A stretch of DNA of 64,000 bases from Escherichia phage REP2, in sequence record OQ174501.1; one strand, given 5' to 3'. The notes beneath the pieces are model-generated. The model was not told the DNA's origin and did not search any database. It saw only the letters and a list, made by a program, of their open reading frames with translations. This document shows, one piece after another, positions 1,342 through 5,698 of this stretch (positions are counted from its first letter, which is position 1; each line of letters opens with the position of its first letter). A program made the translations under genes and the position numbers.

Positions 1342-1935
1342 ATGAACACACTGAAGAAAATTGTTGAGTTTATTCGCACTAAACTTGGTTCTGCTATGGC
1401 TAAAAATCTATCTGTTGAAGAGCAGTATACCGCTGCGGCAGCAAAACTACTTGATAAGATTAAAGATCTAAAAACTGCTTCTGTTAAATCTATTAATGAA
1501 GAAAAGCGTATTCGTGAACTTATTGTCGAAAAGAATAAGCAGGCCGAATCAAAAGAGCGTGAAATTCGCAAGCTTCTTTCGGAAGGTCAAGATGTAACAA
1601 TGCATGCTAAACTTGGTTTACTATATCGTCGAACAGCTGAGCAGTTGACTACTAAAGCTGATGGTTATGCTGAAATGCGAATTGAAATCGCCAAGAAAGT
1701 AGTTGAGTTAGATGATGCTCGTCAAGAACTTGCGGTTAAATTGGAATATATCCGTGAAACTCGTGCAGCAAATGCCCTTGGAATTAGTACTGCCGATGAT
1801 GTAGTTGAAATTGCAGCACTGACTAAGGTTGATATTGAAGATACCCTTGCTCGAGTTGAAACCTTTAACGGCAATATTTCTGGGGTTGAAACTACCTCTG
1901 CCGATGTTCAGGAATACATTAATTCTCTGAAATAA
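1342..1935 (+). CDS. Coiled-coil protein, possibly PspA/IM30-like
   Basis: 197 aa, heptad-rich helical sequence; SD aaggaaa upstream. Confidence 0.5.
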
Positions 1936-1976: not shown

Positions 1977-2582
1977 ATGAAAATGCAAAGTGATTTCAAT
2001 TCAATGTTTGAAGAGTTCCAAAGACAGGTTGATGTTCCAGACCAATTATTAAATGCTCTTAAACGTATGGCAGAAGGACGTAATTACTATTGGGGTTCTT
2101 CATATGAAACTGATGAAAGTCTTTCTGGATTTTATAAAGGTAAAAAGTCTTTAATACGTCCTGGAATACTTATTAACAGTATTGAATCAATTCATTCATT
2201 AACATGTGATTTTGATGTTGAATTTACTGATTTCATTTCTCCTGAATGGACAGTATGTTATTTAAACGACGATTATGATTATCTTGGCGTTTATAGTTTA
2301 AGTGATGCATGGTTTAAACGTAATTTACAAAAGTCAAATTTATTTTATATTGATACTACGGTAAAATTTCAGGGAAAGAAATATTTCTTTACTCTTATAG
2401 TTGATTCTGAAACAAAGCATGAAAATAAACGTATTCTTAGTAAAAAGAATATCTTAACTATTGTTGATGATCTTTTTGATAAATTCGTAGAAAATCCTAA
2501 TTTTGAAAGCGATTTATTATTAGAAAAATTTGTTAAGGAATGTAGAGAATATGTCAAAGCCATCACTATACCTTCCAAGTAA
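1977..2582 (+). CDS. Hypothetical protein
   Basis: 201 aa; C-terminus FVKECREY shares the junction motif seen in the next three genes. Confidence 0.55.
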   Translation: MKMQSDFNSMFEEFQRQVDVPDQLLNALKRMAEGRNYYWGSSYETDESLSGFYKGKKSLIRPGILINSIESIHSLTCDFDVEFTDFISPEWTVCYLNDDYDYLGVYSLSDAWFKRNLQKSNLFYIDTTVKFQGKKYFFTLIVDSETKHENKRILSKKNILTIVDDLFDKFVENPNFESDLLLEKFVKECREYVKAITIPSK

Positions 2583-2943
2583 ACCGTTGAAGTATGAATT
2601 AAAGCGTCAGATAATTTCTACTGATGTGTTAATAGGTCCTGTGGTAGCCGTATCATTTGTGATTCTGCTGATTGCTGGAATAGTTATAGACGTTATGACT
2701 GATATTGAATCTGGTGCAATATTTGGAGCAACACTAATTCTTCCATTGGTAGTTCCGCTTTTATTAGTACCTATAAATTGGATAGGATATTGGTATCAAG
2801 GAAGACACTATCGTAAACGTGTACGTGAATGGAAAGCTCAGTGTAAAAAGATTAAAAAGGAACACCAGCTTAAACTTGCTGCGCATGAATTTAATGAAAT
2901 TATGAAATTTGTTAAGGAATCACGATGCAAAAGCCAAAACTAA
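2551..2943 (+). CDS. Small membrane protein (2 TM), paralogue family
   Basis: Hydrophobic segments VVAVSFVILLIAGIVI and LILPLVVPLLLVPI; charged C-terminal tail ending KESRCK. Confidence 0.55.
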   Translation: MSKPSLYLPSKPLKYELKRQIISTDVLIGPVVAVSFVILLIAGIVIDVMTDIESGAIFGATLILPLVVPLLLVPINWIGYWYQGRHYRKRVREWKAQCKKIKKEHQLKLAAHEFNEIMKFVKESRCKSQN

Positions 2944-3287
2944 ATAAAGTCAAATATTCTCTTCCTGAGTCATTTTTAATTTTTGCTGTAGCGTTGGCTA
3001 CAGCTCTTGCGGGTAGTCTTTTTGGATTGTTAATTGACTGTCTTATTTTAAACATTGACGGCACAGTAAATATAATAGAAGTTTGGAGTGAACTTCGTTA
3101 TACTATAGCGATTTCATTATTTTCATTCTTTGGTACCATGTTATATTTTCATTATGATAATTTTAAAATAAATTGGCAAAGAAAAAAGGATTACAAAATA
3201 CAATTAAATGAATATAATAACTACATGTCTTATATTGAAAAAGAATCAATGGAAGAGTTTGTGAGTGATTGTAGGAAAATTAAATGA
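2925..3287 (+). CDS. Small membrane protein (2 TM), paralogue family
   Basis: 120 aa; TM segments; C-terminal SDCRKIK. Confidence 0.55.
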   Translation: MQKPKLNKVKYSLPESFLIFAVALATALAGSLFGLLIDCLILNIDGTVNIIEVWSELRYTIAISLFSFFGTMLYFHYDNFKINWQRKKDYKIQLNEYNNYMSYIEKESMEEFVSDCRKIK

Positions 3288-3772
3288 TTTTAAAAACTCG
3301 CTGGTATGATTTAGATGATGGGGACGATGGCATTTCAGTTGATAGAGTTGACTGGAGTGGCTGTTCCGAAGATATGAAAAAATTGTTAATTAGGGAGTTT
3401 AGAATGGGATATCAAGCAGCTAAGCCATCTACTGTAACAGATGATAAATTCGTGTGTATTCAAAATGGTCGTGCTAAGTTAACGAACGCTGATTGGTTCA
3501 CAGATAAGAAGGTTATTCTGTGGTATATTATTAGTTTTCCTGTGACATCATTTGTATTTTGCTTCTTTGGAGAAAGTCCAGTAGGCAGAACGGAAGATTG
3601 GATTCTTTTAATTATACTTGTTAATATTTTTACAGCAGCAGTACTATCAGGAATATGGTGCGTGTTCATTGAAATGCCATGGCGGTTACGTAGGCAGCAA
3701 AAGATTTTTGATGAAAAGAAATATACTCAAAATTTAAATAATTTTATCACTGAATGCAGGAAATTAAAATGA
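3284..3772 (+). CDS. Small membrane protein, paralogue family
   Basis: 162 aa; TM segments; C-terminal TECRKLK; its stop overlaps the nudE start (ATGA). Confidence 0.55.
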   Translation: MILKTRWYDLDDGDDGISVDRVDWSGCSEDMKKLLIREFRMGYQAAKPSTVTDDKFVCIQNGRAKLTNADWFTDKKVILWYIISFPVTSFVFCFFGESPVGRTEDWILLIILVNIFTAAVLSGIWCVFIEMPWRLRRQQKIFDEKKYTQNLNNFITECRKLK

Positions 3773-4208
3773 AAACATTATCAGCTGGTATTATCTTTAT
3801 GACAGAAGATAAAGATTTATTTATGGGACGAGTTACTGGTTCTCGTAAGCCTGGAATGATGGCACATCGCTGGATATTCCAAAGGGGCGTGTAGAAAATT
3901 CTGATTTAAGCGCATTAGATGCAGCACGAAGAGAATGCTCAGAAGAGACTGGTTTTAACAATTATAATCCAGACCTTCTAGAAGACCTAGGTGTATTTAA
4001 ATATTCTAGTAATAAAGACTTACAGTTATTTTATTATACGATTCCAGTAGAGCATGAGATGTTCAGAAATTGCCGTTGTGAGTCTTATTTTGAAAATAAA
4101 GATGGCGTTATGATTCCAGAGATGGATGCTTTTGCTCTTATTCCTCGTACTCAGTGGCAATATGTGATGGGTCCTTCACTTTACCGAATAATGAACAGCC
4201 TCTTTTAA
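3769..4208 (+). pseudogene. nudE: Nudix hydrolase NudE (e.1) with apparent 1-nt deletion frameshift
   Basis: N-terminal 41 codons (MKTLSAGIIFMTED...MMAHRW) stop at 3892-3894; the rest, including the Nudix box GRVENSDLSALDAARRECSEETGF, continues in the -1 frame to 4208. The break is at tgg(g)atattcc. Confidence 0.6.
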
Positions 4209-5224: not shown

Positions 5225-5698
5225 ATGAAAACATATCAAGAATTTATCACTGAAGCAGCTATTAATTCTCAAATTATTGCTGAATCTTTTACCGATCTTT
5301 TGAAATTTAAAAAAGGTCAAAAAATCACTGCTGTATTGGATGATGGTACAGAAGTTGAGATGGATGTACAGGGATATAATTATGCAGTAGATGGAAAACT
5401 GTATAATAAATCTCATGCTAAATTTGATTCATTTGACGACTTTGTTAATACAGTTGAAGATGAAAAAACTCGTAGATCCATTGCAACTGGCGACGCTAAG
5501 GTTCTTATGGCACATGGCCATGAACGCATCCGCGCTAAACAGAATAAAATGGGCGAAGATAATTTTGCATTAGTTGGTTATCAATCTGGTAAACAAACTT
5601 ATGGCTATCAACGTACTGCTACCATGTATAATAAAAATGGTAAAATCGCTTTCGTGAATAGTAAAGGTTCTATTCAGTACGTTAAATCGTTCAAATAA
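5225..5698 (+). CDS. Internal protein (Ip) with capsid-targeting N-terminus
   Basis: MKTYQEFITE|A capsid-targeting sequence; 157 aa. Confidence 0.7.
   Translation: MKTYQEFITEAAINSQIIAESFTDLLKFKKGQKITAVLDDGTEVEMDVQGYNYAVDGKLYNKSHAKFDSFDDFVNTVEDEKTRRSIATGDAKVLMAHGHERIRAKQNKMGEDNFALVGYQSGKQTYGYQRTATMYNKNGKIAFVNSKGSIQYVKSFK

Follow-up and report, generated by a model that had tools for sequence, protein, structure and literature searches.

The product of gene e.6 of Escherichia phage REP2, a protein of 197 aa, is very probably homologous to the bacterial membrane-stress proteins of the PspA/IM30 family (PF04012). It is probably a very divergent, phage-borne member of the PspA/IM30 branch (Vipp1, LiaH) of the ESCRT-III superfamily, with a function that we infer from this placement; it extends a known family by a divergent member and does not constitute a novel type of system. 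Even in T4, the standard model among lytic phages, about half of the genes have no known function. The superfamily placement gives a concrete candidate role to a gene found in about 1,100 genomes of Straboviridae and Ackermannviridae.

Gene e.6, its distribution and its flanking elements

In the 64,000-nt stretch of REP2 DNA that was analysed (OQ174501.1; the window), the coding sequence of e.6 (msp3) runs from ATG to TAA on the + strand (1342-1935; 197 aa plus stop), as in the initial annotation, and has the Shine-Dalgarno sequence AAGGA (1331-1335, +) 6 nt 5' of the ATG. The window is DNA of a Tequatrovirus; over its first 6 kb, it matches Escherichia phage REP3 (OQ174502) at 100% identity and hundreds of T4-like phages at 95-97%. 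The 197-aa product has 100% identity to T4 msp3 (L13089) and RB51 e.6, and its counterpart in the REP3 record (WCA46175) is labelled 'hypothetical protein'. The T4 gene appears under the old name msp3 (L13089), as e.6 (RB51 and the T4 genome) and as T4p129, with the UniProt entry P39224. The tRNA cluster lies on one side of the gene, and e.5-e.2, nudE, e (lysozyme) and denV lie on the other.

By tblastn, e.6 was present in 1,099 of 50,697 phage records, with a coverage of at least 80% in 1,091, and HMMER, run exhaustively on 1.84 billion cluster representatives, gave 45 clusters of the family at 50% identity, nearly all of them with members of about 195-205 aa. The carriers belong to Straboviridae and Ackermannviridae, with hosts including Aeromonas, Erwinia, Klebsiella and Serratia. 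A time course of the T4 transcriptome and proteome (PMC9697503 supplements) puts e.6 in the early class by its RNA and in the middle class by its protein. The ORF is therefore a real gene and not a chance ORF, given its occurrence in these phage records, the approximately uniform length across the clusters and the RNA and protein time course of T4.

PHROGs assigns e.6 to phrog_1203, 'unknown function', and in the approximately 1,100 phage records the gene is listed as 'hypothetical'. Many records of homologues carry the label 'host specificity protein' (RAST-style), and the UniProt entry of the homologue of Klebsiella phage UPM 2146 reads 'Tail completion protein'. These labels have no basis in the sequence or the predicted fold and look like propagated misannotations; the early expression of e.6 argues against a virion or tail role. 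A search of the literature on T4 e.6, phage-encoded PspA and PspA in T4 infection found no functional study of e.6 and no paper connecting T4 e.6 with PspA. An eLife paper on heat-evolved pspA mutants deals with changes of the host capsule and envelope and has no bearing on e.6.

Two database entries of the family deserve comment. In RB43 (NC_007023), 'e.6' is annotated at 3501-3947 as a protein of 97 aa. Because the tblastn similarity begins about 150 nt upstream of the annotated start, and because another RB43 record (HE858210) matches residues 6-200 of the full-length relative P0188 (see below), a mis-called start or a frameshift is suggested for e.6 in the RB43 RefSeq record. P0204, a distant family member, is named 'hypothetical protein [Proteus mirabilis]' and is encoded on a 50.5-kb contig, which could be phage DNA inside a bacterial assembly.

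A promoter-like element, GTTTACA-12 nt-TATAAT, was read from the sequence upstream of e.6 (1275-1299, +). Its counterpart in T4 (L13089) is GTTTACA-17 nt-TATTAT, annotated by the depositors as an early-type -35/-10 directly upstream of msp3. The 12-nt spacing in REP2 is unsuited to a sigma-70 -35/-10 pair, and a simple sigma-70 scan of the window did not call the element; the element is therefore a doubtful promoter here, and e.6 may be transcribed in REP3 from a promoter upstream of it. The upstream neighbour is unlike that of T4, with a 58-aa ORF (phrog_5461; 1122-1310, +) replacing msp2/e.7 (L13089 584-980).

On the other side of the gene, 6 nt 3' of the stop codon, the transcript is predicted to fold into a GC-rich stem-loop, AGGGGC-UUCG-GCCCCU (1941-1956, +), and the surrounding region (1930-1975) has a folding energy of -14.5 kcal/mol (z = -2.0). 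The hairpin is conserved, and the T4 record L13089 has it as 'stem_loop, putative'. No U-run follows it on the + strand, and a terminator scan called it on the - strand only; it could be a transcript-end hairpin or a stabiliser hairpin.

Further along, nudE (e.1; 3769-4208, +) is split by a frameshift. Frame 1 encodes 41 aa (MKTLSAGIIF...QRGV*; 3769-3894), and the remainder is read in the +2 frame, up to about 4208. In the REP3 record, 'nudix hydrolase' is the label of the 41-aa stub, the only part annotated; the split gene is either a pseudogene or the result of a sequencing error. Two ORFs of 157 aa (75-548 and 5225-5698, +) flank the e.6-denV block and begin with the capsid-targeting leader of T4 internal proteins (MKSYAQFLNEA and MKTYQEFITEA). 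The one at 5225-5698 is labelled 'internal virion protein' in REP3, and the one at 75-548 hypothetical.

Homology to PspA/IM30 and predicted fold

The protein of T4 and REP3, searched alone, has no match to PF04012 even at E <= 10, Pfam giving sub-threshold coiled-coil noise only, and NCBIfam has no PspA or LiaH match for it. A shallow T4-type alignment (A1), compared by hhalign with the single E. coli PspA, gave a 29-column local match (Prob 0.6%), and the profile A1 reached Vipp1 in the PDB at E about 1-2 only. Since the T4 protein does not match PF04012 and the hhalign comparison with A1 failed, divergent intermediates are needed for the link to PspA. These were recovered with the T4-type profile A1 from 1.84 billion proteins as divergent full-length relatives (E 1e-13 to 1e-21), among them P0186, P0188 and P0189 (E 4e-21 to 9e-20). 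The gathering score of PF04012 PspA_IM30 (33.9) is exceeded by P0188 (39.0 bits) and P0186 (35.1 bits), and P0189 matches the same family at E 1e-4; each of the three aligns colinearly with positions 2-143/151 of the profile, and the precomputed Pfam label of P0188 is PspA_IM30.

The profile of the whole family (A2; 41 sequences) was then compared with known structures and with PspA and Vipp1. Against all PDB chain sequences, Vipp1/PspA took eight of the nine top places with E-values that are modest (9.4e-5 to 1.5e-3), in a colinear alignment of 1-146 with 1-147, and a prefoldin coiled coil is found in the same list at E 1.4e-3. The hhalign comparison of A2 with PspA and Vipp1 gave Prob 91.3% and E 9.5e-7 over 170 columns, a probability of 91%, not >95%, that was obtained with a shallow template (n = 7 sequences). 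Its register places Met1 on Met1, with residues 1-176 of e.6 aligned to residues 1-172 of PspA. Identity to E. coli PspA is approximately 14% over the aligned columns, and about 14-17% across the PspA/Vipp1 comparisons.

A protein with long helices invites the explanation that e.6 is a generic coiled-coil protein (BAR-like, a scaffold or an adaptor), whose likeness to PspA would come from convergent helical periodicity. This is quite unlikely. Reversing either hhalign partner lowered the score to 18-19, from 47.4 for the real pair, and 40 column shuffles scored 12.6 +/- 2.2 (maximum 19.8); a circularly shifted template always realigned in the original register, with PspA residue 1 on e.6 residue 1. 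Because the reversed and shuffled controls fail and the circular shifts keep the register, the match is register-specific and goes beyond generic coiled-coil similarity. With controls at 12-20 against 47 for the real alignment, two family members above the curated PF04012 threshold, helix boundaries at most a few residues away from those of alpha0 and the hairpin, and two motif pairs at equivalent positions, the evidence argues against convergence. The first of these pairs is HAKLGLL in e.6 and LARAALI in PspA; in the second (ARVETF/ARFESF), the 'ARVETFN' of e.6 aligns with the 'ARFESFE' of PspA at nearly equal residue number. Divergent family members also keep the PspA-type 'F..ANVN' at the N-terminus.

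Other searches added no sequences to this picture. A word-index search with E. coli PspA returned close enterobacterial PspAs only and was useless as a deep template, a scan of genome contigs with the PspA and Vipp1 alignment returned 80 loci that were all at least 80% identical, and a word-index search with A2 gave nothing beyond the known members.

The AlphaFold2 model of e.6, computed with 41 family sequences as input, has a mean pLDDT of 82 and a pTM of 0.66. By DSSP, approximately 84% of its residues are in helices (2-22, 25-80, 86-145, 151-160, 166-173 and 186-196), and the helix layout was unchanged in a run with a shallower alignment. The protein had been described in the initial annotation as almost entirely helical and similar in length to PspA, and both points hold, the second at 197 aa where E. 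coli PspA has 222 aa. Its 'charge-patterned heptads' apply only loosely and are putative: the content of D/E/K/R is 34%, and the hydrophobic periodicity peaks at 3.5 residues. Both homology and fold support the proposed PspA/IM30-like nature of the protein, through the PF04012 relatives, the comparison of A2 with the PDB, hhalign, AlphaFold2 and Foldseek. In the Foldseek search of the PDB, Vipp1 accounts for the eight best matches (E 3e-3 to 1.3e-2, probability 1.0), and CdvB2 filaments of archaeal ESCRT-III come next.

In PspA and Vipp1, helix alpha0 corresponds to aa 1-22 and the hairpin to aa 24-142 (PMC8281802), and the helix boundaries predicted for e.6 agree with both within a few residues. 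The first predicted helix (residues 2-22; 1345-1407, +) is amphipathic and cationic and is the alpha0 equivalent in the AlphaFold2 model and in the alignment to PspA 1-22. It has a hydrophobic moment of 0.45, compared with 0.42 for PspA and 0.57 for Vipp1, and a net charge of +4; across the 41 family members, the N-terminal helix has a mean moment of 0.41 and a net charge of +1 to +5. Residues 2-22 are thus predicted to form an alpha0-like membrane-binding helix.

The hairpin follows, with a first arm (residues 25-80; 1414-1581, +) that is modelled at pLDDT 88-98 and is colinear with alpha1 of PspA/Vipp1. The tip is the loop EGQDV (residues 81-85; 1582-1596, +), non-helical by DSSP and aligned with the tips 'KERED' of PspA and 'NGEEN' of Vipp1. 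The second arm, corresponding to alpha2/alpha3, comprises residues 86-145 (1597-1776, +) in the AlphaFold2 model, in which the two arms are joined by this 5-residue loop at pLDDT 88-98. The most conserved motif of the family, ten residues long, is found in the second arm and aligns with 'LARAALIEKQ' of PspA; K90, L91, L94 and R96 are invariant in the family.

The C-terminal region (residues 146-197; 1777-1932, +) is modelled as the short helices 151-160, 166-173 and 186-196, with low pLDDT at residues 160-185; two motifs in it are conserved, ARVETF and [DE]-x-x-x-Y-[ILM]-x-x-L-K. The short helices are possibly alpha4 and a shortened alpha5. The C-terminus alone had no significant match to PspA/Vipp1, including the tail compared with PspA 203-214. 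In the known proteins, alpha5 contacts the hairpin tip of a neighbour (Interface 1), which is the polymerisation contact of ESCRT-III type (PMC8281802); because the C-terminal homology is not significant, the alpha5 domain swap that defines this polymerisation is hypothetical for e.6. No transmembrane segment was found in the protein, the maximum of the 19-residue Kyte-Doolittle window (KD19) being 1.05.

Possible role in the infected cell

The homology, the cationic amphipathic alpha0, the hairpin, the lack of a transmembrane segment and the early expression together suggest a peripheral protein of the inner membrane. Membrane binding, polymerisation and a physiological role are proposed here by analogy with PspA and Vipp1, and as a full mechanism, e.6 acting as a PspA-like peripheral protector of the inner membrane seems the better than even choice. 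The protein would be made from an early transcript in soluble or peripheral form, and alpha0 (2-22) would attach it to the inner membrane from the cytoplasmic side, as in PspA and Vipp1. Its hairpins (25-145) would line up next to one another to build polymers or carpets, again as in these two proteins, and the short C-terminal region may stand in for alpha4/alpha5. Such polymers would stabilise the stressed membrane and limit the leakage of protons.

During T4 infection, the inner membrane is perforated by DNA injection and loaded with phage membrane proteins, and its energisation has to last until the holin triggers, which takes much longer under lysis inhibition. The Psp response of the host depends on sigma54, and T4 stops host transcription early. 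After this shut-off, the infected cell is presumably unable to induce its own Psp response, and a phage-encoded PspA-like effector would replace the protection that the host presumably cannot mount.

The same homology would also fit a regulator or mimic, in which the hairpin binds host PspF, PspB/C or PspA oligomers and so blocks or hijacks the envelope-stress response. Residues 1-144 of E. coli PspA engage PspF, and this region is covered by the 4WHE fragment that was compared; the conserved and confidently modelled part of e.6 is the alpha1/alpha2-3 hairpin, and the C-terminal polymerisation region is reduced. Against this, approximately 14% identity to E. coli PspA makes a conserved, specific surface for PspF binding unlikely, a block of PspF would add little where T4 shuts off host transcription anyway, and the occurrence of the family in phages of many hosts, with the cationic amphipathic alpha0 retained, points to membrane binding. 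Mimicry is thus very unlikely.

Selection for counter-defence or protection from superinfection is a further alternative, in which a PspA-type membrane protector would repair or pre-empt the damage from membrane-depolarising abortive-infection effectors or from the injections of secondary phages. This alternative draws on the same evidence of structure and homology as the inner-membrane protector described above, and the early expression would suit it, as would the location of e.6 in the variable accessory region from the tRNA cluster to gene e, amid small membrane proteins and genes of unknown function, with upstream neighbours that differ between T4 and REP3. However, a gene with such a distribution across Straboviridae and Ackermannviridae (about 1,100 records) is far more widespread than typical strain-specific anti-defence genes, and we consider this kind of selection unlikely as the main explanation.

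The genes directly downstream of e.6, which are e.5, e.4, e.3 and e.2 (1977-3772, +), are candidates for partners. The products of e.4, e.3 and e.2 are small and have two hydrophobic TM-like segments each, the product of e.5 is soluble, and the four end in similar motifs of the form F-x-x-[ED]-[CS]-R, more narrowly F-[VI]-x-[ED]-[CS]-R. The PHROGs labels of the neighbours of e.6 are limited to unknown or 'membrane protein'. No PspB/PspC/PspF-like partners were seen in the annotations and PHROGs labels of e.5-e.2, nudE and e, and no similarity to PspB/C was detected for e.4, e.3 and e.2. When e.5, e.4, e.3 and e.2 were compared pairwise by BLAST with each other and with the genes that follow a distant homologue, the short C-terminal motif alone was found, at E about 0.02 in a six-sequence database. 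This is too weak to take e.5-e.2 as paralogues or conserved partners; at most, they may be membrane proteins of one paralogous group and so conceivable partners of e.6.

The metagenomic contig of P0188 also encodes UvsX- and DnaB-type proteins. In this contig (6614-7383), the PspA_IM30-positive e.6 homologue is again followed by a membrane-type gene, here for a 186-aa protein with an N-terminal TM segment, and the next ORF encodes 60 aa with a moderately hydrophobic N-terminus below the TM cut-off; neither protein has detectable similarity to T4 e.5-e.2.

A broader proposal makes e.6 the polymerising core of a phage-specific, ESCRT-III-like membrane-remodelling module with e.4, e.3 and e.2 (and e.5), to which we give a low probability. 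The module would go beyond passive patching and actively remodel the host's inner membrane during infection, or divide it into compartments, for example by sealing the lesions of injection or of the holin, with an effect on lysis timing, or by forming membrane-associated sites of replication or assembly. If true, tailed phages would have domesticated ESCRT-III-type machinery.

As an inner-membrane protector, e.6 suggests that large virulent phages supply a membrane-maintenance protein of their own to hosts in which they have silenced the stress responses, and a phage-borne PspA turns the meaning of 'phage shock protein' around. It may also be relevant to lysis inhibition and the timing of lysis, to superinfection and to resistance against abortive-infection systems that depolarise the membrane. 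With 197 aa and a reduced alpha4/alpha5, e.6 is also a small model for asking which parts of ESCRT-III proteins serve membrane binding and which serve polymerisation.

Comparison with known systems

Like PspA, Vipp1 and LiaH (PF04012), which have about 200-220 aa, e.6 has an amphipathic helix at approximately 1-22, a hairpin at approximately 24-145 and no TM segment. It differs from PspA/Vipp1 in the signature 'AEDP' after alpha0, which is replaced by 'N-[LT]-[ST]-V-E', and from PspA in the region after residue 145, which is approximately 25 residues shorter and in which the equivalence to alpha4/alpha5 is only putative; unlike Vipp1, it has no Vipp1-type alpha6. The genetic setting also differs, as e.6 is a gene of lytic phages with early expression, whereas PspA and LiaH belong to stress-induced operons (sigma54 or LiaRS), and no PspB/C/F or LiaI partners were seen among the annotated neighbours of e.6.

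The hairpin-based fold predicted for e.6 may be shared with archaeal and eukaryotic ESCRT-III (CdvB/CdvB2, Snf7/CHMP). CdvB2 filaments and Asgard ESCRT-IIIB are among the weaker structural matches (Foldseek E 0.06-0.4); at the sequence level, ESCRT-III proper gave no signal, and no Vps4/MIM-type C-terminal elements were evident in e.6.

The homologues in Ackermannviridae (P0188-type; Escherichia phage FEC14, Salmonella phage SJ3, Klebsiella phage vB_KpnM-Zahir) are full length and agree with e.6 in size and helix layout. P0188 matches the T4-type profile at E 4e-20, and as a single sequence it reaches e.6 of RB43, 44RR and Tequatrovirus by tblastn. Unlike T4-type e.6, these homologues have a more canonical N-terminus ('F..ANVN...') and pass PF04012 alone, yet their records are still annotated as hypothetical despite the precomputed PF04012 label.

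Other PspA-like proteins of phages are more remote. The 'PspA/IM30 family protein' of Acinetobacter phage vB_AbaM_ME3 (UniProt) belongs to the same superfamily and is not close to e.6, appearing at rank 16 (E 0.07) in the Foldseek BFVD list for e.6. A pspA-like gene adjoining terD has been mentioned for the Jug jumbo gut phages (PMC12880540); its TerD-associated context is unlike that of e.6, and it is not a close relative. Two surveys of the evolution of Psp and ESCRT-III do not discuss phage copies in their text. Queries with canonical PspA/Vipp1 found 2 of the 50,697 phage records, both unannotated metagenomic 'Bacteriophage sp.' With approximately 1,100 records against these two, the e.6 lineage is by far the commonest PspA-like protein in sequenced phages, masked by its divergence.
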